This document shows, piece by piece, positions 1 through 60,545 of a stretch of 64,000 bases of DNA. The DNA lies in NCBI GenBank assembly GCA_963662945.1, contig OY759974.1, forward strand, positions 1,824,001-1,888,000, in the 5' to 3' direction. Under the pieces are notes generated by a model. It searched no databases, had not been told where the DNA came from, and worked only from the letters and a program-made list of their open reading frames with translations. The translations under genes were made by a program, and so were the position numbers. The DNA comes from Arcobacteraceae bacterium. Its GTDB lineage: Bacteria; Campylobacterota; Campylobacteria; Campylobacterales; Arcobacteraceae. Position 1 is the stretch's first letter; every line of letters starts with the position of its first letter.

Positions 1-1559
1 ATTGAAAGTGTTGGTTTGGATGCAATTAGTTCTATTTTAAATTTTGCAACAGATTCTTTATGTCCTATAATAATTAATACATCTGCCTCTTTGATTATAT
101 ATTGATCAGGCTTTGGATTGAACTTGAATTTTTTATTATTTGAAGTTTCAACTATTCCAATAAGGGTGAGATTAAACTTTGTAAAATCAATATTTTCTAG
201 TTTATGTCCAATGAAGTTAGATTTCTGAATAATCTCAACTTCATCCATAATAGCACCTTCACTATTTAATAAAATATCATCAATAGCTTCAAAGGCAATG
301 GGTTGACCAATATATTCAGCTGCAACTAATGCACTGATTTCATTTGCAGATATAACTTCATTTGCACCAGCTAAAAAAAGTTTTTTCTTTACTTTTTCAC
401 TATTTGCACGAGCTATTATGTTTATATTTGGATTTTGTGAACGAGCAGTAAGTATAATGGAGAGATTTACAGCATCATTATCAGTAATTGCAATAATACT
501 ACTTGCTCCTTTATTAATACCTATATTTGATAAAAAAGTGGAGTCTGTTGCATCCCCTTTTATAGATAAAATATTTTGTGTATTTGCATGAGAAAAAACT
601 TCATCTTTATAATCGATAATAATAAATTTTTGTTTTATTTTCAATAACTCTTCTGCAAGAACTTTTCCCATTCGTCCATAACCACAGATAATAACAAATT
701 CTTTTAGGGCATTTGCTTCACCAATAACTTTTTCCTCTTTTAAAGCAAGCAGTCTTGCACTGAGTGCTGTGGTAACAATCGATGTAAAGAATGCAATAAC
801 ACCAACACCACCTACAACTAAAAAGATAGTGGCAATTCTTCCTTCTGTAGTAACTGGACTAATATCTCCAAATCCAACTGTTGAAATAGTAATAACAGCC
901 CAATAAACAGCATCAAAAAAGGTGTGAATGTTTTCATTAACACCGGCACCTTCATATATAAAAATAATAGTTGAACCAAAAGCAATAGCCATAAAAAACA
1001 TAATTGCAAGTGTAAAAAACTCAAACCGTTTCTCGATGAAAACATCACTAAATTGTTTAATAGAATTTGCATACCTAAGAAGCTTAAAAAGTCTAAATAG
1101 CATTAGAATTCTTAAAATTCTTAAAGGTCTGTAATAAGGTAAAATAGCAAGTAAGTCAATAATTGACATAGGAGAAAAGATAAATTTAATTTTATCTTTG
1201 ATAATGGTTTTTAGAGAATCATTGATATTGTATGTTTGATTGATTAATCGACTTTTTTCATAATCTTCTACAATTTGTTTATGAGCATGGGAGATTACCC
1301 ACAATCTTCCCAACCACTCAATAATAAAAATAATGATTGCAATCATTTCATAGGTACTCAGCCAAGGAAGAGCAACATGATTTACTTCATAAATCATTAT
1401 ACCAACAGTACTAAGTACTAAAAAAATCATCAAAAAATCAAAATATTTTTTCTTTTTTGAACCAGTGTCTTCTAAAAATTCATACGCAAAATGTTTTATT
1501 GCATAATATCTATGAGAACCTTCTAGAAAATAGGCGAATTTTAATAGTATGCTACCCAT
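1..1559 (-). CDS. Voltage-gated-type potassium channel with TrkA_N/TrkA_C (RCK) domains, 3' end outside window
   Basis: Manually translated (absent from ORF track): ATG at 1559 after GAGG RBS, MGSILLKFAYFLEG...; S4-like RPLRILRILMLFRLFKLLRY, pore motif TISTVGFGD, RCK ICGYGRMG. Confidence 0.85.
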   Translation of the reverse strand, partial: MGSILLKFAYFLEGSHRYYAIKHFAYEFLEDTGSKKKKYFDFLMIFLVLSTVGIMIYEVNHVALPWLSTYEMIAIIIFIIEWLGRLWVISHAHKQIVEDYEKSRLINQTYNINDSLKTIIKDKIKFIFSPMSIIDLLAILPYYRPLRILRILMLFRLFKLLRYANSIKQFSDVFIEKRFEFFTLAIMFFMAIAFGSTIIFIYEGAGVNENIHTFFDAVYWAVITISTVGFGDISPVTTEGRIATIFLVVGGVGVIAFFTSIVTTALSARLLALKEEKVIGEANALKEFVIICGYGRMGKVLAEELLKIKQKFIIIDYKDEVFSHANTQNILSIKGDATDSTFLSNIGINKGASSIIAITDNDAVNLSIILTARSQNPNINIIARANSEKVKKKLFLAGANEVISANEISALVAAEYIGQPIAFEAIDDILLNSEGAIMDEVEIIQKSNFIGHKLENIDFTKFNLTLIGIVETSNNKKFKFNPKPDQYIIKEADVLIIIGHKESVAKFKIELIASKPTLS

Positions 1560-1586
1560 ATAAACCTCGCCTATTAAATACTAAAA

Positions 1587-1730
1587 CTATTCAGTTGCTT
1601 CATGAATAGTACTTTTGGTTGCTTCCCATCCATCATTGGTGTCTTTTTTAATACCTTCCCACGTTGCACATCCAGTAGAAACCAAAGTAAATACGAATAG
1701 TAATAGAATCCCTAAAATTTTACTTTTCAT
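1587..1730 (-). CDS. Small entericidin-like lipoprotein (47 aa)
   Basis: AGGAG RBS; MKSKILGILLLFVFTLVSTGCATWEGIKKDTNDGWEATKSTIHEATE; signal peptide with lipobox STGC followed by ATWEGIKKD. Confidence 0.75.
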   Translation of the reverse strand: MKSKILGILLLFVFTLVSTGCATWEGIKKDTNDGWEATKSTIHEATE

Positions 1731-1740
1731 ACATTCTCCT

Positions 1741-3306
1741 TTATATTTGATGAGGATTTTCTTTATTTAACATATCTTTCATAGATAAATAACTATTTAA
1801 AGCTCCCACATAAGCTCTTGCACTTGCTATCATTGTATCTAAATTTAATCCATGTCCTATCATAGGTGGATTATCATCATTAAAGGTAACTTTACAAGTA
1901 ACTTTTGCTAATGCATCTTTCCCTTCGCTTACTGCTTTTACATTATAATCTACTAAAGTACCATTATATCCAGTTATTCTGTCAATTGTTTTAAAAATAG
2001 CATCCATAGCACCATCTCCAATTGCAGCTTCTGTTATTTCTTGATCTTTGTATTTGATACTTACAACTGCACTAGGAACACCTCTACTACAATCAGAGAT
2101 TTGAACAGCCGTAATTTCGTATATTTTGTTATGATTTAATTTTTCATCAGTAACAATCATTCGAACATCATCATCCATAATCTCTTTTTTCTTGTCACAT
2201 AATAATTTAAATCTTTCAAATGCTGTATTTAATTCATCATCAGGTAAGTCAGCAAAACCTAACTGTACTAATTTGTCTTTAAATGCAGCACGACCAGAGT
2301 GTTTTCCTAAAACTATAGAATTGTTTTTTTCAATACCTATATCTTCAGGCTTCATAATCTCATAAGTTTCTTGATGTTTTAAAACACCATCTTGATGGAT
2401 TCCACTTTCATGTGCAAAAGCATTTTTACCAACAATAGCTTTGTTTGGTTGCGGTTCAATACCTGTAATGTTTGCAACCATTTTTGAAGCTTGGTATATC
2501 TCTTTTGTATTGATATTTGTAGTAATACCAGGGAATAAATCTTGTCGTGTTTTTAATGTCATAACAATCTCTTCCATAGCAGCATTTCCAGCTCTCTCAC
2601 CTAAACCATTGATAGTACACTCAACTTGTCTTGCACCAGCTTCAATACCTGCTAAAGTATTTGCAACTCCTAATCCTAAATCATTGTGATTATGTAATGA
2701 TACAATAGCATTAGAACCAATTGAATCAATAAATCCAACCATTTGTTCTACCATAAATCTAATTTCTTGTGGTAATCTATATCCAACAGTATCTGGTAAA
2801 TTTATAGTAGTAGCTCCAGCCTCAATTACAGCTTGTGTAATTTCTTTCATAAAAGATAATTCACTTCTTCCTGCATCTTCCAATGAGAACTCAACATCTT
2901 CTACGAAAGTTCTTGCATATTGTACTGCATGAATTGCTCTTTTGATTACTTCATCTGGACTCATTTTTAATTTATATTGCATATGAATTGGACTCGTTGC
3001 AATAAAAGTGTGAATTCGTTTTGCATTTGCAGCTGCTATTGCTTCACCTGCTGCTTTAATGTCATTGTCAACAGCTCGTGCTAATGAACAGATTTTACTG
3101 TTTTTAATAGTTCTTGCTATTTGTGATATAGCATCAAAATCACCAGGACTTGCAGCTGCAAAACCAGCTTCTATTACATCGACCCGTAATTTTTCTAATT
3201 GTTGCGCTATTTGAATTTTTTCTGCTGTATTCATAGACGCACCAGGACTTTGTTCTCCATCTCTTAATGTTGTATCAAATATTATTATATTTTTGTTATT
3301 TGTCAT
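1741..3306 (-). CDS. leuA: 2-isopropylmalate synthase
   Basis: [35 protein letters not shown] motifs plus C-terminal regulatory domain. Confidence 0.97.
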
Positions 3307-3373
3307 TTTATAAACCTTGTTATATATTAAATTATTTTAAATTTTTCAATTTAGACTGTGGCTTGATTTTGAA

Positions 3374-3448
3374 TTATTTTGAGGTATGGAGAAGGAGTAG
3401 ATTGGTACTTTTAAATATGATATTTTTAGATATGTATGTAGCTTTCAT
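3374..3448 (-). CDS. Putative leucine leader peptide (24 aa)
   Basis: AGGAGA RBS; MKATYISKNIIFKSTNLLLLHTSK*; four consecutive Leu codons CTA CTC CTT CTC; ends 67 nt upstream of leuA. Confidence 0.7.
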   Translation of the reverse strand: MKATYISKNIIFKSTNLLLLHTSK

Positions 3449-50664: not shown

Positions 50665-52026
50665 ATGAATAAAAACCATTTAATAACTAATGATATAAAT
50701 AGTCTCATCAAACAAATAGCAATCCCTTCAAGTATAGGTATGTTTTTTAACACAATGTATAATGTAGTTGATACTTTTTATGTGGGTATGTTATCTACTA
50801 TTGCTATTACAGCACTTTCCTATAGTTTTATTGTGTATTTTATGTTACTTTCTATTAGCTTTGGACTATCATCTGCTATTACAGCTCATGTAGGAAATTC
50901 ACTTGGAAAATATAAAATAAAATTAGCAAAAATCTTTATAGCAAATGGTATAACTTTTGTAACAATAGTTGCATTACTCCTTTGTAGTATAGGATTTATT
51001 TTTGTGGAAGATATTTTTATATTGATGGGTGCTAAAGATGAAGCACTATATTTATCTCTTGATTATACCTATATAATACTCATAGGTGTCTTGCCAATGC
51101 TTATAGGTCTTGGGGCAAATGCAGTGCTTATAGCACGTGGAGATACAAAAAGTTATAGAAATACTTTGGTATTTGGATTTTTTTTAAATCTGATTTTAGA
51201 TCCGTTGTTTATGTATGGATATGGTTTTATCCCAGCTTTTGGATTTAAAGGTGTTGCTTATGCTACTGTTTTTATCCAGTTTATAACTTTTGGATATATT
51301 ATGTTCAAGCTTTATAAAACAACACTTTTTAACTTTCAAAATTTAAAATTATTTTTACCAGATTGCCGTGTGTATAAAAAAATTCTTGTACAAGCATTAC
51401 CTCAAAGTTTTAATATGTTTATCATGTCATTAGGAACAATGGTTGTTATGTATTTTGTTTCACAATACGGATATAAAAGTGTTGCTGCTTTTGGGATAGG
51501 GTATCGAGTAGAGCAGATTATACTTCTTCCTATGTTGGGATTAAATGTAGCGGTTAGTTCCATCGTTGCTAATAATTTTGGGGCAAAAAATTTTGATAGA
51601 ATTAATGAAGTGATAAAAAAGTCACTTATATATGGCTATATTATGAGTGGTATTGGAGTACTTTTTTTAGCACTAGCTGGAAAATATATCATCATGATAT
51701 TTGATAATGATACAGAAGTTGTATCTGTAGCATATATTTATGTGGTAGTTGAAAGTTTTATATTTTTTGCATATATCACAATATTTATCTCTAACTCTAC
51801 ACTTCAAGGGATAAAACAACCTTTTGTAATACCATATATTAGTTTTTACAGACAGATTTTTATGCCTGTACTTATCTTGTATTTTGTTGTAGATATTTTT
51901 AAACTTGATATTGTTTTCGTATGGATTGTGATGGGAGTTATTATCTATAGTGCCGCTTTTTTTATCTATTATTTTACGAAGAAGAAGTTGTTGGAGTTGG
52001 AGATAAATCTTAGAAAAAAAGAGTAA
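50665..52026 (+). CDS. MATE family efflux transporter
   Basis: 12 TM pattern, YNVVDTFYVG, GDTKS, NLILDPLF. Confidence 0.92.
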   Translation: MNKNHLITNDINSLIKQIAIPSSIGMFFNTMYNVVDTFYVGMLSTIAITALSYSFIVYFMLLSISFGLSSAITAHVGNSLGKYKIKLAKIFIANGITFVTIVALLLCSIGFIFVEDIFILMGAKDEALYLSLDYTYIILIGVLPMLIGLGANAVLIARGDTKSYRNTLVFGFFLNLILDPLFMYGYGFIPAFGFKGVAYATVFIQFITFGYIMFKLYKTTLFNFQNLKLFLPDCRVYKKILVQALPQSFNMFIMSLGTMVVMYFVSQYGYKSVAAFGIGYRVEQIILLPMLGLNVAVSSIVANNFGAKNFDRINEVIKKSLIYGYIMSGIGVLFLALAGKYIIMIFDNDTEVVSVAYIYVVVESFIFFAYITIFISNSTLQGIKQPFVIPYISFYRQIFMPVLILYFVVDIFKLDIVFVWIVMGVIIYSAAFFIYYFTKKKLLELEINLRKKE

Positions 52027-52041
52027 ATAGTTTAATTTTAT

Positions 52042-52281
52042 TTATTCTTTGATACTGTTACAAAAGATAATAGTCTTAGCAGTTTTACCATTTGTAAACA
52101 CACGATTTCCACCAATTCGCCAACCATTACTTTGTCTGACTGTCTCATCATCACATTGTATAGGTTTGTTGTCTCGAAAATCTTTGAGTAGTTGGGCTCG
52201 TCTATTCTTTTCATCGAAACCATAAATAACAATACAAATGAAAATAATAAGTGTGATATAGATTAATTTTTTATTTGTCAT
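52042..52281 (-). CDS. Small membrane-anchored hypothetical protein
   Basis: N-terminal TM, C..C pair; TATAAT 8 nt upstream of ATG. Confidence 0.65.
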   Translation of the reverse strand: MTNKKLIYITLIIFICIVIYGFDEKNRRAQLLKDFRDNKPIQCDDETVRQSNGWRIGGNRVFTNGKTAKTIIFCNSIKE

Positions 52282-52580
52282 AATGATATATTATAACTAT
52301 TGTTTGTTTGATTTTTAAATAATTATAAAAACTAACATTATGCAGTCTTATCACGATTTTACCTTAATATACACACATCATGTACTATTATCGTCTAAAT
52401 ATTCATATAAAACATACATAAAAATTCAATAATTAAGATTCATTTTTATTTCAAATTCCAATACTTTTTATAAAAAAATCTCTATAAGTACCTTATTTAA
52501 ATGTTTGTAGTCATTTTGATATACGACATATTTTGCGTATGTTATTTGTTGATTTTTAGGCTATCTTGTATATAATGTAT

Positions 52581-52599
52581 GTTCAATAAAGAGTTAGAC
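52581..52599 (+). mobile_element. attI-like integron recombination site
   Basis: GTTCAAT (degenerate inverse core) - 5 bp AAAGA - GTTAGAC (GTTRRRY core). Confidence 0.55.
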
Positions 52600-52676
52600 A
52601 ATGGATGAACTTATTATGTATAACTTTGTCCAAAACAATATAATGTATAGTTACACTAAGCAAGAGGAAAAACAAA

Positions 52677-54230
52677 TTGAATAAATGCAATATGAACTGT
52701 TATGGCAAATGTCAAAGAAAAGTCTATATAGATGATAGGTGTATATTGCATTGTTCTAAAAACGACTATCAAAAAGATCGTAATTCAGGGTTGCTATCTG
52801 TTTTCTATAATGAGCTTATAGATTATACAATCGAGCAACTATTTCTGAATAGAGAATTACTTGATGATAAATATTCAAAAGATGAAATTATAACTTATCT
52901 AAAAAGTGATAGATTTGAAAATGATGAATATAATGGGGCTTTAAAAAAGAGCATTTTTATCCCAAACTGTATTCACTTTCCAAAAAGAGATGGGCGAGAT
53001 ACATTTGATTATCTGAAAATTTTAAATCTGTTTGGTCAAATTCATTTTAACTATTGTGAATTTTATCTTTCTAGTTTAAATTTAAATAATATAGAGTGTT
53101 TTTTCCAAGATTGTAAATTTAATGATAGATGGACACTTTATGATTATAGAATATTAGAAAATGAAGACAATGTAATTTATCAAACTTGTGAATTTACAAA
53201 ATCAGTTTCAAATTATACACCTGATAGATCAACTGAATTAGCTATTTATAATTACTCTCAATTTGACTACACATGCAAATTCAATAAAAATTTAAAATTT
53301 GACAGATCTATTTTTAAAAATAGGCTTTTTAATACGGAACAAGATAATTTTCTTGATGAGAATTCAATAAAAATATTAGAGTTTAATAAGTGTGTTTTTG
53401 AGAAAGAATTTAAACTTAACCAATATACTATAGATATGTTTATTGTTCAACATAGTGAATTTAACGATACATTTGAATTTCAAAACAATAGTGTAAATGA
53501 TATAAAAATTCAAAACTCAGAATTTGAAAAAGTTTCAGTTTTTACGAATAGCAAATTTATTGATCTATATATAAGTGATAGTGTGTTTAATGAGAACATA
53601 GATTTTAAAAGTTCTATCTTTGGGGAAAAGAATGATTTAACTAAAATTCCTACCACTTTTAAATCTGTAATAATTCATAAATCAATAAATTTTAGAGATG
53701 CAAAATTTTATTATGGATTAGATATACCAGATACAAAAATAAATGACTTATCTAGTTTTTTAAATGCAGACTTGGCTATCGAATATACTCCAAGAGATAC
53801 TTTTAGAAGATTAAAACATGAATTCGATAGTATTGGGAATATTATTGAAGCAAACAAATTTTATCACAAAGAAATGCAAAAAATGGAAGAAGAGTTAAGA
53901 AAAGAACTTCCAAAAAGTTTTTTAGAATGGATAGTATTTCAAATGCATGGTATTTTTTCAAGACATTCTCAAAGTTGGATACGACCAATTATATGGATTT
54001 TGTTAATTAGTCTATTTTGTACTGCAAATATTCAAGACAATTTGATAGATACTATTTTTGCTACTTACTATTCAAATATACTCGATAATATTGCAAATTC
54101 TATAAATCCATTTTCTATTATGACCAGCAAAGACCCAATAACTTTTGGACTCTTAATATTCAAAGTCCTAATAGCCTACTTAATCTATCAATTCATAATT
54201 TCTATACGTCAAAATACTAGGAGAAAATAA
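52677..54230 (+). CDS. Pentapeptide-repeat-like protein with C-terminal membrane segments (cassette cargo)
   Basis: Cys-rich N-terminus CILHC; recurring F-xxx-F repeats; RRLKHEF..N..EANKFY..EM; two C-terminal TMs. Confidence 0.7.
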   Translation: MNKCNMNCYGKCQRKVYIDDRCILHCSKNDYQKDRNSGLLSVFYNELIDYTIEQLFLNRELLDDKYSKDEIITYLKSDRFENDEYNGALKKSIFIPNCIHFPKRDGRDTFDYLKILNLFGQIHFNYCEFYLSSLNLNNIECFFQDCKFNDRWTLYDYRILENEDNVIYQTCEFTKSVSNYTPDRSTELAIYNYSQFDYTCKFNKNLKFDRSIFKNRLFNTEQDNFLDENSIKILEFNKCVFEKEFKLNQYTIDMFIVQHSEFNDTFEFQNNSVNDIKIQNSEFEKVSVFTNSKFIDLYISDSVFNENIDFKSSIFGEKNDLTKIPTTFKSVIIHKSINFRDAKFYYGLDIPDTKINDLSSFLNADLAIEYTPRDTFRRLKHEFDSIGNIIEANKFYHKEMQKMEEELRKELPKSFLEWIVFQMHGIFSRHSQSWIRPIIWILLISLFCTANIQDNLIDTIFATYYSNILDNIANSINPFSIMTSKDPITFGLLIFKVLIAYLIYQFIISIRQNTRRK

Positions 54231-54231
54231 T

Positions 54232-54294
54232 ATGCAAAAACTAAACGAACTATCATTAAAACAAAGAAAAGAGCTATTTAGGCAAATTGTCTAA
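54232..54294 (+). CDS. 20-aa mini-ORF ending in the attC inverse core
   Basis: AGGAG RBS; MQKLNELSLKQRKELFRQIV*; TAA lies within GTCTAAC. Confidence 0.4.
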   Translation: MQKLNELSLKQRKELFRQIV

Positions 54295-54343
54295 CAAGTC
54301 CTAGCAGTGAACGCAAAAGCGTCACTGAATTTAACCGTTATAA
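54289..54343 (+). mobile_element. attC site (55 bp)
   Basis: GTCTAAC AAGTC CTAGCAGT GAACGC AAAA GCGTC ACTGAAT TTAACC GTTATAA: R'', 5-nt spacer, L'', stem with extra bases, L', 6-nt spacer, R'. Confidence 0.78.
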
Positions 54344-54393
54344 TTGTCTCAAAAAAATATTTAATAAATCCAGTTTTTTTAGTCTCCTCTTCT

Positions 54394-54425
54394 CCTCGCT
54401 CCCATCGTCCCAGATAGGAGCGAGG
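54394..54425. repeat. GC-rich hairpin (REP-like element or terminator)
   Basis: CCTCGCTCC-N14-GGAGCGAGG in an AT-rich context, T-run shortly after. Confidence 0.5.
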
Positions 54426-54498
54426 GATACTTTTTTAAGTTTAAACTATATATATCGTTTTGTTAAAATGATATATAAGTTAATTATAGGAGTTCATT

Positions 54499-54756
54499 AT
54501 GCAAACAATAGCAGTACAAGTTCAAGATAATTATGTACAAAAATTTATGAGTTATGTTAATAATCATAGTGAAAATATCTCTATTTCAAAAGATAAAAAT
54601 TTAGAACAAGACCCATATTTTTATGAAAGACAAAAACAACTACAGCAAGATATTGAAGATATAGATAGTAGTAAAGCAGAAATGTTATCATCAGAACAAT
54701 TTGATAATGAAATGGATATTTTTTTCAAAGACTTAAAATTAGATGCAAATATCTAA
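54499..54756 (+). CDS. Orphan type II antitoxin, paralog of 60291-60545
   Basis: AGGAG RBS; MQT start; DKNLEQDPYFYER vs DKNLAEDPYFYQR. Confidence 0.75.
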   Translation: MQTIAVQVQDNYVQKFMSYVNNHSENISISKDKNLEQDPYFYERQKQLQQDIEDIDSSKAEMLSSEQFDNEMDIFFKDLKLDANI

Positions 54757-54793
54757 ACTAAGAAGATATAAAAACCAATTAACAATTATTTGA
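54743..54793 (+). pseudogene. 5' remnant of a RelE/ParE toxin
   Basis: Overlaps antitoxin end; MQISKLRRYKNQLTII* resembles MSIIESLQFKDELRKI of 60542; followed directly by the dnaK terminator. Confidence 0.55.
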
Positions 54794-54797
54794 AAAT

Positions 54798-54830
54798 AAA
54801 AAAGGGAGAGTAAAACTACTCTCCCTTTTT
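54798..54830. terminator. Bidirectional intrinsic terminator after dnaK
   Basis: AAAAAAGGGAGAGTA AAAC TACTCTCCCTTTTT. Confidence 0.85.
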
Positions 54831-54850
54831 GCTAGTTGTGAAGTTAAATA

Positions 54851-56746
54851 TTACTCAACTTCTGCATCAATGATGTCGTCATCATCCTTTTTCTTCTTAG
54901 CATCAGCTTGACCTACACCAGCAGCACCAGCGTCTCCACCTTCTTTTTTGTACATAGCTTCAGCAAGTTTATGACTAACTTCTGTTAAAGCTTTTAATTT
55001 CTCTTCAATTTGCTCTTTTGAAGCATTTTCATCTTTTAGAACTTCTTCTAAAGCAGCAGCAGCATCTACGATTTTTTTCTCTTCATCTTCACTTACTACA
55101 CCTTTATTTTCTTCTAAAGATTTTTTAGTTGAGTGAAGCATGGCTTCTGCTTGGTTTTTAGTTTCAATTAACTCTTTTTTCTTAGCATCTGCTTCTTTGT
55201 TCGCTTCTGCTTCTTGTACCATTTTTTCGATCTCATCATCACTTAATCCAGACGAACCAGAGATTGTGATTTTGTTCTCTTTTCCAGTACCTTTATCTTT
55301 TGCAGATACATTTAAAACACCATTTGCATCGATATCAAATGTTACTTCAATTTGAGGTACACCTCTTGGAGCTGCTGGGATGTCAGATAGTTCAAATGTT
55401 CCAAGAACTTTATTATCTTTTGCGAACTCTCTCTCACCTTGACCAACCATAATTGAAACAGCTGGTTGATTATCTTGAGCTGTTGAGAAAACTTGAGATT
55501 TTTTAACTGGGATTGTTGTCCCTTTCTCAATAAGTTTAGTCATAACTCCACCTAAAGTTTCAATACCTAAAGATAGTGGTGTAACATCAAGTAAAAGTAC
55601 ATCTTTAACATCACCTGTTAAAACTCCACCTTGAATAGCTGCCCCTGCTGCAACAACTTCATCTGGATTTACAGAGTTATTTAACTCTTTTCCAAAGTAC
55701 TCTTTTACTACTTGTTGTGCTTTAGGGATTCTTGTACTTCCTCCAACCATAATAACTTCGTTGATTTCATTTTTCTCTAAACCAGCATCTTTCATAGCTA
55801 CTTTGATGTGTTGTAAAGTTTCTGCAATTAAATCTTCAGTCATAGCATCAAATTTTGCTCTTGTTAATGTTTTAACTAAGTGTTTTGGTCCTGTTGCATC
55901 AGCTGTGATAAATGGTAAGTTTATCTCTGTTTCATTTGTAGCACTTAACTCTTTTTTCGCTTTTTCAGCTTCATCTTTAAGTCTTTGGTGTGCCATTTTA
56001 TCAGTTGTTAAATCTATTCCATGCTCAGCTTTGAACTCATCTGCTAACCATTTGATGATTCTGTTATCAAAGTCATCTCCACCTAAGAATGCATTTCCAT
56101 CTGTTGAAAGAACTTCAAATGTACCATCACCGATTTCAAGAACAGTAACGTCAAATGTTCCCCCACCTAAATCGTAAACTACAACTTTCTCTTCACCTTT
56201 TTTATCTAAACCGTATGCTAGTGAAGCTGCTGTTGGTTCGTTGATAATTCTTAATACATTTAAACCTGCGATTGTTCCTGCTTCTTGTGTTGCTTTTCTT
56301 TGTGCATCGTTGAAGTATGCTGGAACTGTAATAACTGCATCAGTTACAGTTTGTCCAAGATAACTTTCTGCATCTGATTTTAATTTTCCAAGAATTTTTG
56401 CTGAAATTTCTTGAGGAGTATATACTTTTCCTGCAATCTCAACAGCTGCTGCTCCATTTCTATTTACTATTTTGTATCCAACTTTATCCATAGCATCTTT
56501 TGCATGCTCTTCATCCATCATAAGACCCATAATTCTCTTAATAGAGTAGATTGTTTTTTCTGGATTTGTGATAGCTTGTCTTTTTGCTGGATCACCAACT
56601 AAAACTTCACCTTTATCTGTAAAAGCAACTACTGAAGGAGTTGTATTTTTCCCCTCTTTATTTGCTATAATTTTTGCTGCTCCACCTTCGTAAACTGCCA
56701 CACAACTATTTGTTGTTCCTAAGTCAATTCCTATTGTTGCTCCCAT
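54851..56746 (-). CDS. dnaK: Chaperone DnaK
   Basis: [32 protein letters not shown]. Confidence 0.98.
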
Positions 56747-60290: not shown

Positions 60291-60545
60291 ATGCAAACGT
60301 TACAGTTAGATATTGAAGATAATAAGGTTGATATAGTTTTAAATTTAATTAAAAATTTAAAAGAGGGTATTGTAACAAATTATACATTGGTACCATCTAG
60401 TGATAAAAATTTAGCGGAAGACCCATATTTTTATCAAAGAAAAAAAGAGTTACATCAATTGAGAGATGATATACAAAATGGCAAAATAGAAACTTATGAC
60501 TTTAATCAATCAATGGATGAACTAATTAAGGAACTTGAAGCTTGA
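60291..60545 (+). CDS. Type II antitoxin (acidic)
   Basis: Small acidic protein overlapping the RelE/ParE gene (TTGA). Confidence 0.78.
   Translation: MQTLQLDIEDNKVDIVLNLIKNLKEGIVTNYTLVPSSDKNLAEDPYFYQRKKELHQLRDDIQNGKIETYDFNQSMDELIKELEA

Follow-up and report, generated by a model that had tools for sequence, protein, structure and literature searches.

A gene cassette without a neighbouring integrase at an attI-like module of an Arcobacteraceae chromosome

Sedentary chromosomal integrons combine an integrase gene (intI), its attachment site attI, a cassette promoter (Pc) and an array of gene cassettes bounded by attC sites. Clusters of attC sites lacking an integron integrase (CALINs) are also frequent in genome surveys, which describe their origin as unclear and name the loss of intI as one proposal (Cury et al. 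2016, PMC4889954; IntegronFinder 2.0, PMC9024848). As defined in these two papers, a CALIN requires at least two attC sites, single sites are dropped by default and attI is searched only for class 1-3 integrons. Here, we analyzed a 64-kb stretch (the window, whose numbering is used throughout) from an Arcobacteraceae bacterium with a genome of one contig (2,497,315 bp, 28.9% G+C), and confirmed that it carries a cassette with one attC site and no local integrase. We read 52594-54337 as a true integron gene cassette, integrated at the G^TT point (52593/52594) of an attI/promoter module from which the integrase gene was deleted, with an integrase (IntI) acting in trans as the likely enzyme. We assign this reading a probability of roughly 0.6.

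The locus shares several features with sedentary chromosomal integrons, including the attI core, a putative cassette-facing promoter, the G^TT crossover, the attC architecture and a cargo whose function is unknown or defence-like, and complete integrons with the same attI core occur in the genus. Unlike these systems, it has no adjacent intI and a single cassette, and it is one of five intI-less modules in its genome. CALINs, as described in the surveys, likewise hold cassettes without a neighbouring intI in genomes that may encode IntI elsewhere. An earlier, sequence-only reading of the window had proposed a solitary cassette or relic integron without an integrase alongside, of CALIN type. 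The first part of that proposal is supported, whereas the label does not apply in the strict sense, with one attC in the window against the threshold of two; other orphan arrays of the same genome hold four and two attC matches. Because single attC sites are dropped and attI is unsearched outside classes 1-3, the informative part of this locus, its retained attI/promoter module, would go unreported under the published defaults.

Two further types of insertion bear comparison. Solitary cassettes far from an integron are described for attG insertion (preprint 10.1101/2022.09.11.507474), but the target here is an attI homologue with a candidate promoter, at the same chromosomal place in three species. 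Parts of attI in odd array places are described for the Delta-attI-type cassettes of mobile integrons (PMC12901181), which recall the leader of our cassette (52636-52654) and a core in one metagenome contig; we treat this likeness as a lead only, and the cassettes described there belong to class 1-type resistance integrons, unlike ours. Full-text literature searches on orphan or multiple attI found no description of such platforms, and searches on integrons in these taxa found no integron report, to which it should be added that the surveys' supplementary genome tables might list the genus.

The attI/promoter module and the cassettes behind it

The left boundary of the cassette, the crossover site G^TTAGAC at 52593-52599 (plus strand), ends a module of ~265 bp (52333-52596, plus strand) that is homologous to the intI-attI intergenic region of integrons in the genus and has no intI beside it. 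The module is repeated in the same genome and in relatives, has a sharp left edge at ~52333 and, by alignment, represents the whole intI-attI intergenic region. Its core, TATATAATGTATGTTCAATAAAGAGTTA (28 nt), is identical at 28 of 28 positions to the intI-adjacent attI of one congener (G043; G-codes denote genomes of relatives and L-codes individual loci or contigs that were compared) and at 27 of 28 positions to that of a second (G008). In both of these genomes, the core sits between a divergently oriented intI and an attC array, with five attC matches in G043 and two in G008. The last 29 nt of the module recur at six places in the window's own genome (≤4 mismatches), with different DNA after GTTA each time, and one of these copies lies 240 nt from the start of intI. 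Homology to the intI-linked attI regions of G043, G008 and this genome identifies the head of the array as a predicted attI, and homology with the other attI copies stops at the crossover site.

Two other orphan copies in the genome retain the intI ribosome-binding site, and one of these also retains the start codon and a few bases, after which homology ends. An integrase profile search of the genome found no integrase remnant near any orphan attI. Given this result and the intergenic homology, the orphans are best read as integron platforms from which the intI frame was deleted. The window's locus, with a full attI/promoter module as its left boundary, is thus best explained as an intI-deleted integron platform and not as an insertion at a secondary site.

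Within the module, we identified a candidate Pc-like cassette promoter (52549-52576, plus strand; TTGATT, 16 nt, TATAAT) that agrees with 10 of 12 consensus positions and ends 17 nt before the crossover G. The TATAAT box is kept in all six attI copies of the genome and TTGATT in five of the six; the region as a whole has no excess of promoter matches over shuffled sequences (26 versus 22 ± 4.3). From the sequence, we infer that this module would supply a sigma-70-type promoter reading into the first cassette.

Next to conserved flanks, the content of the array varies between species. Two syntenic congeners (G006 and G009) have in common with the window positions 52040-52598, which comprise a small minus-strand open reading frame (ORF) and the intI-less module, as well as the dnaK side; the left module and the right flank (54338-54389, plus strand, and the dnaK side) are 82-94% conserved between species. 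As the sequence-only reading had anticipated, the presence/absence breakpoints coincide with GTT triplets: homology to G006 and G009 stops at 52597/52598, and that to G006 resumes at 54330. Behind the same GTTAG, G006 has 2.6 kb of other DNA with four cassettes, the last attC of which ends in ...CCGTTATAATTGTCTCAAAAAAA and is homologous to window 54330-54389, and G009 has 2.9 kb of other DNA with at least two cassettes, ending in ...ACTATAATTGTCTC. The right flank of the window's array (TTATAATTGTCTCAAAAAAA...) is common to the array ends of both relatives and may be the original attI's right half. The window cassette starts with GTTAGAC, which exactly complements the R'' of the same cassette, GTCTAAC (7/7), a rule that also holds for the four cassettes of G006 (4/4), for the terminal cassette of G009 (7/7) and, at six of seven positions, for the first cassette of G009. 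Similar attC sites were expected in relatives' arrays and do stand there, for example in G006 and at loci carrying a homologue of the cargo gene. In a third relative (G013), the same locus holds a decayed attI core and 531 bp of filler without an attC match. An empty site, also looked for by alignment, was present in none of the three syntenic relatives, and no pattern search for the joined sequence was made in other genomes.

With an intI-less left junction that is shared and first cassettes that differ, the simplest reading is that integration at this attI followed the loss of intI, and this is the basis for proposing that an integrase acted in trans.

Parts of the module were also seen in other settings. 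The leader of the window cassette contains a partial second attI core at 52636-52654 (AATATAATGTAT-AGTTAC, without GTTCAATAAAG). The GTT of this core precedes the TTG start of the cargo gene by 27 nt, and in L038, a locus with a homologous cargo gene, the start codon follows the true attI GTT at the same distance; homology to L038 begins just past this second core, at 52667. The preceding 42 nt resemble the start of a cassette elsewhere in the genome (2438984) and include GTATAAC. This arrangement suggests that the leader consists of an earlier, decayed cassette and an internal attI module. On metagenome contig L046 (2485-2610), an attI-like core with TATAAT is located within an array, 49 nt after an attC and followed by the apparent right half of another attC, so attI/promoter modules may also occur within arrays. 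Matches to the attI module (76%) and to the region of an 85-aa ORF from the window's right side were found within 1.2 kb in a genome from another family of the same order (G037, C12:10468-11649), which indicates that the module is not confined to the genus. Assembly in four public runs breaks at the repeated attI module.

The attC site

The cassette is closed by a 55-nt attC site (54289-54343, plus strand), and all of the elements listed by the sequence-only reading are present: R'' GTCTAAC (54289-54295), spacer AAGTC (54296-54300), L'' CTAGCAGT (54301-54308), GAACGC (54309-54314), AAAA (54315-54318), GCGTC (54319-54323), ACTGAAT (54324-54330), spacer TTAACC (54331-54336) and R' GTTATAA (54337-54343), with the crossover G at 54337. 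The folding part is one 9-bp hairpin with a 4-nt loop (CAGTG-A-ACGC / GCGT-CACTG, 54305-54327), in which a single A (54310 or 54311) is bulged from the 5' arm, equivalent to an extrahelical T on the bottom strand. Nine unpaired nucleotides stand on either side of the hairpin, from AAC to stem and from stem to GTT. The proposed stem with an unpaired A is upheld, and the proposed L'' and L' boxes pair only in CAGT/ACTG. Folded as DNA, the site has a minimum free energy of -9.6 kcal/mol on the top strand (z -2.74) and -8.9 kcal/mol on the bottom strand (z -2.25).

The inverse core consensus of attC sites is RYYYAAC for R'' and GTTRRRY for R'. Compared with these letters as commonly given, R'' of the window matches at 7/7 positions and R' at 5/7, including the invariant GTT. 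Across 12 attC sites of the family, AAC and GTT are invariant and the pattern reads xxxTAAC, 5 nt, stem, 9 nt, GTTRxxx. The 9 + 9 nt spacing of the window's site, checked by reading, is also found in a family member of ~69 nt (G000 2438 cassette 1), and an exception among the 12 (intI cassette 2) has 11 + 9.

Clear cassettes with attC sites of this family were found by reading outward from the genome's own intI and in G006, and 12 such sites, seven from the genome outside the window, four from G006 and one from G009, served as the training set for a genus-specific covariance model (R1) from which the window's site was left out. RNAalifold gave no pairs on the MAFFT alignment of the 12 sites, and a minimal structure was therefore supplied by hand; a walking heuristic for attC sites was discarded, having produced mostly false sites in this A+T-rich genome. 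With filters off, the sole significant R1 match in 64 kb was 54289-54343 on the plus strand (34.2 bits, E = 1.5e-5), which bears out the prediction that a covariance model would recognize the site. The next best match in the window scored 15.6 bits (E = 0.43), out of 18 matches in all up to E = 10. Applied to 83 kb of other loci, R1 recovered the 12 training sites and two new ones (41 bits each), with noise reaching a maximum of 19.3 bits.

Two of the features first pointed out at this site are at chance level when taken alone. The 10-bp inverted pair exists as described, with GTTAGACAAT at 52593-52602 being the exact reverse complement of ATTGTCTAAC at 54286-54295, but as an argument it fared less well: in the 2.6-kb region, 33 pairs of inverted repeats are at least 10 nt long, among them several perfect 10-11-mers, and this pair is outside the 25 longest. 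Taken alone, the complementarity is weak evidence. Likewise, a genome scan for the bare geometry (AAC + 9 nt + 7-bp stem ... + 9 nt + GTT) returned 33 sites per strand compared with 44 in a reversed-sequence control. What lifts the attC above chance is the covariance-model match, the homologous short attC sites behind homologous cargo and the breakpoints of relatives at GTT triplets. The short attC sites of the window and of contigs L046 and L041 have their flanks and the bulged A in common, and between the window and L046 two stem pairs are changed on both sides. These compensatory changes are suggestive. Across the three sequences, covariation analysis gave two compensatory pairs and 87.9% paired cells versus 18-39% in slid controls, which carries little weight because 62/500 shuffles did as well.

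We also considered whether the hairpin is a Rho-independent terminator and rejected this identity: positions 54305-54327 are followed by AATTTAACCG, no T-run stands directly after the hairpin, unlike in such a terminator with its G+C-rich hairpin, and a terminator scan made no call there. An Rfam scan of 51500-55500 (E ≤ 10) yielded only sub-threshold chance matches and no attC family.

One integrase, several platforms and competing explanations

The suggestion that an IntI might be encoded elsewhere proved correct. One intact copy is located at contig position 545688-546632, 1.33 Mb from the cassette; free of stops, it matches TIGR02249 with 403 bits (cut-off 265) and covers positions 1-313 of the 315 in the model. 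No other TIGR02249 match in the genome exceeded the cut-off; the remaining matches were weak, none fell within the window, and the adjacent intI of a complete integron is absent from the window's locus. The intI-linked attI is followed by two clear attC matches and cargo with no family match. In addition to the window's module, the genome contains four orphan attI modules, three of them with attC-bounded cassettes: one at contig 2.4390 Mb (four attC matches behind it; cargo with no family match), one at 3.45 kb (two attC matches; SIR2-like and TIR-domain proteins), one at 1.9818 Mb (one attC match; a GNAT acetyltransferase cassette) and one at 1.4313 Mb (no attC match; a lipoprotein-like gene). 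Judged from sequence matches, the cargo at these other orphan sites is defence-like or toxin-like in flavour. At L035 (contig 1029-3425), the matches are to a SIR2-like protein (E = 7.5e-19) and to a CAP12/Pycsar-type TIR domain protein (E = 5.3e-21), and the GNAT acetyltransferase cassette corresponds to L034 (contig 1981013-1981453). The single cassette is ordinary; less ordinary is its setting on one of several attI/promoter platforms that have lost intI and whose first cassettes change, in a genome with one IntI.

Among 28 genomes of the genus, intI exceeded the cut-off in 12 and the attI-like module was present in 11, at up to five copies each. Five of the 11 module-bearing genomes have no intI over the cut-off, including G006, G011 and G020 with 99% completeness. 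In G009, an intI match (C30:122508-123485) occupies two reading frames, its middle third being out of frame with the rest, probably reflecting either a disrupted gene or sequencing errors.

Based on these features, the proposed mechanism is as follows. The short attC at 54289-54343 would end a first cassette encoding a 517-aa membrane pentapeptide-repeat protein, whose former Fic partner gene appears reduced to 20 codons. On the bottom strand, the attC is predicted to fold into a hairpin with one extrahelical base, as integron integrases recognize, and the sole IntI of the genome would likely integrate and excise here in trans from 1.33 Mb away. Excision would free a circle of 1744 nt (joined at R' G / TTAGACAAT) and leave a chromosome joining ...AAAGAG to TTATAATTGTCTC.... 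For the present-day mobility of this particular cassette, we estimate about even odds.

A number of observations weigh against cassette integration by an IntI acting in trans, and several of them fit a different account, in which a real cassette at a real former integron is no longer recombined and is kept as an ordinary chromosomal gene under the old promoter. The window's attC has the lowest score of all accepted sites (34.2 bits versus ≥40.8 for 14 others), its L box pairs poorly and its minimum-energy fold is the central hairpin alone. A length of 55 nt is at or under the shortest attC lengths described in the literature. The whole-genome R1 run, in which 150/6070 first-look candidates were scored, did not list the site. 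The cassette itself looks worn, with fic deleted and an 83-nt leader that is rearranged and holds the partial second attI core (52636-52654), and the L038 homologue of the cargo gene lies behind an attI-like site without an attC match (R1 best 12 bits). The genome's own intI-linked attI resembles the orphans mainly in the last 29 nt. In G006, at 99% completeness, there are four attI-like modules and a four-cassette array with no intI at E ≤ 1e-30, from which it follows that such arrays can persist without any integrase; G011 and G020, also nearly complete, similarly keep attI-like modules without intI. The decayed attI core of G013 at the same locus, without an attC match, and the presence of the same cassette in a second sample of the same organism fit this account as well. 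Finally, the contigs of four public runs contained no excision or empty-site joint, although contigs cannot show rare events. A frozen relic is nevertheless difficult to reconcile with three species that have a common intI-less left junction and different first cassettes, where those of the window and G006 begin with the exact complement of their own R'' and that of G009 with six of seven positions, a combination that argues for integration at attI after intI was lost. In addition, R'', R', bulge and stem are all intact in the window, and the genome retains an intact IntI. Overall, we regard the frozen state as unlikely, while giving it serious weight.

The remaining accounts explain less of the data. 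Following DNA uptake, for instance, homologous recombination at the conserved flanks could have exchanged the cassette content without IntI ever having acted on the orphan attI, and the left module and right flank with the dnaK side, at 82-94% between species, could be recombination arms. This would leave the origin of donor arrays with the same flanks unexplained, and all arrays that were read have their junctions exactly at G^TT; we consider it very improbable. IntI-driven insertion at a secondary genomic site of the attG type has precedent in the preprint cited above and is named among the origins of intI-less arrays by Cury et al. 2016 (PMC4889954), yet it is contradicted by the ~265 bp of homology between the target and the intI-attI region, including a 28-nt core identical to an intI-linked attI, and there is hardly any room left for it. 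The least credible account is a chance look-alike, that is, a small terminator-type hairpin with fortuitous AAC and GTT motifs. The bare geometry and the 10-bp inverted repeat are indeed at chance level in a 29% G+C genome, but the R1 match and the breakpoints at GTT triplets contradict this account, homologous attC sites with two compensatory stem changes stand behind homologous genes, and the hairpin has neither a T-run after it nor a terminator call, making its probability negligible.

The locus illustrates what a dropped single attC can be, namely a complete expression platform (attI and a putative promoter) minus the integrase frame. The platform is kept at one chromosomal place in three species with a different first cassette in each, and the pattern is found five times in one 2.5-Mb genome with a single IntI. 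Should IntI serve these platforms in trans, cassette capture and expression would not be limited to one array per integrase. We tentatively extend this to a distributed integron, in which several intI-less attI/promoter platforms of the genus stay live docking and expression sites for one remaining IntI, a proposal that we rate somewhat short of even odds. If true, one recombinase would maintain first-position, expressed cassettes at several loci at once, and many intI-less arrays would have a concrete origin in the precise loss of the intI frame with attI and promoter retained. The genome also lends itself to easy testing, since it combines a single enzyme with six attI sites and arrays that are short.

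The cargo gene and the surrounding region

The cassette (1744 nt, plus strand, delimited by the two G^TT points) consists of the leader, the cargo gene, a fic remnant and the attC. The cargo gene is an ORF of 517 aa with a TTG start (52677-54230, plus strand), and in its product a Cys-rich N-terminus is accompanied by pentapeptide-type repeats and, at the C-terminus, membrane helices, with a weak Pfam match to Pentapeptide_3 (E = 0.02, below the cut-off). For the cargo and two small neighbouring ORFs, PADLOC returned nothing and NCBIfam a single match far below the cut-off (E = 0.073). We found 147 relatives of the protein at E ≤ 0.001, mostly unnamed, with the named ones coming from Sulfurimonas, Arcobacter, Halarcobacter and Sulfurospirillum; pentapeptide and ion-channel clusters neighbour it in the atlas, which we note as a lead only. 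A 27-codon ORF in the leader (52601-52684, MDELIMYNF...) overlaps the TTG start in another frame.

Homologues of the cargo gene stand in cassette context in six other contigs (L038, L041, L042, L044, L046 and L047). The copy in L038, from an Arcobacteraceae metagenome-assembled genome, is 86.6% identical over 52667-54285 and lies directly behind an attI-like core in a different neighbourhood, with an intact Fic gene next to it. In L042 and L046, the gene and fic are located between attC matches; in L044, the pair has three attC matches (1069-2183) upstream; in L047, the gene is directly behind an attI-like core. L041 carries the gene alone directly behind an attI-like core and ends in an attC that is likewise 55 nt long, homologous to that of the window and has an R'' complementary to its own cassette start. 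The gene and fic pair is present in L042, L044, L045, L046 and L047.

In the window, the Fic/DOC gene remnant (54234-54296, plus strand) has 20 codons (MQKLNELSLKQRKELFRQIV, then a stop codon that falls inside R'') and shows homology to the beginning of the intact Fic gene (228 aa; Pfam Fic, E = 9.4e-17) located after the cargo homologue in L038. The motif CT(T/A)TTTAGRCAA occurs twice in L038, once where fic starts and once where it ends, and a deletion between such short repeats may have given rise to the remnant. After the intact fic of L038 (3425-3450), the sequence GCAAATTGTATAAC-C-GTTATAAG has R'' and R' abutting, with the attC interior absent.

Family matches place the locus between the genes named by the sequence-only reading, a MATE-type gene (MatE transporter, 50665-52026) on one side and a Hsp70/DnaK gene (54851-56746, minus strand) on the other. 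A G+C-rich inverted repeat at 54394-54435 (CCTCGCTCCCATC / GATAGGAGCGAGG), followed by a T-run on the plus strand and located 50 nt past the attC, resembles an array-closing terminator; a consensus terminator scan made no call for it. Between the array's right flank and the dnaK terminator, 54457-54796 is a stretch that is multi-copy in the genus, with many matches at 72-87% and a partial second copy within the window at 60402-60492. It contains the 85-aa ORF (54499-54756), whose product matches no family in Pfam, NCBIfam or PADLOC; no attC match bounds the stretch, and it reaches very high contig depth in a brine metagenome. One low-depth metagenome contig skips 52282-54794, and we draw no interpretation from it. 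At the opposite side of the locus, about 2.2 kb of additional DNA separate the MatE gene from the small minus-strand ORF in G006 (L029), compared with 85 nt in the window (51956-52041).

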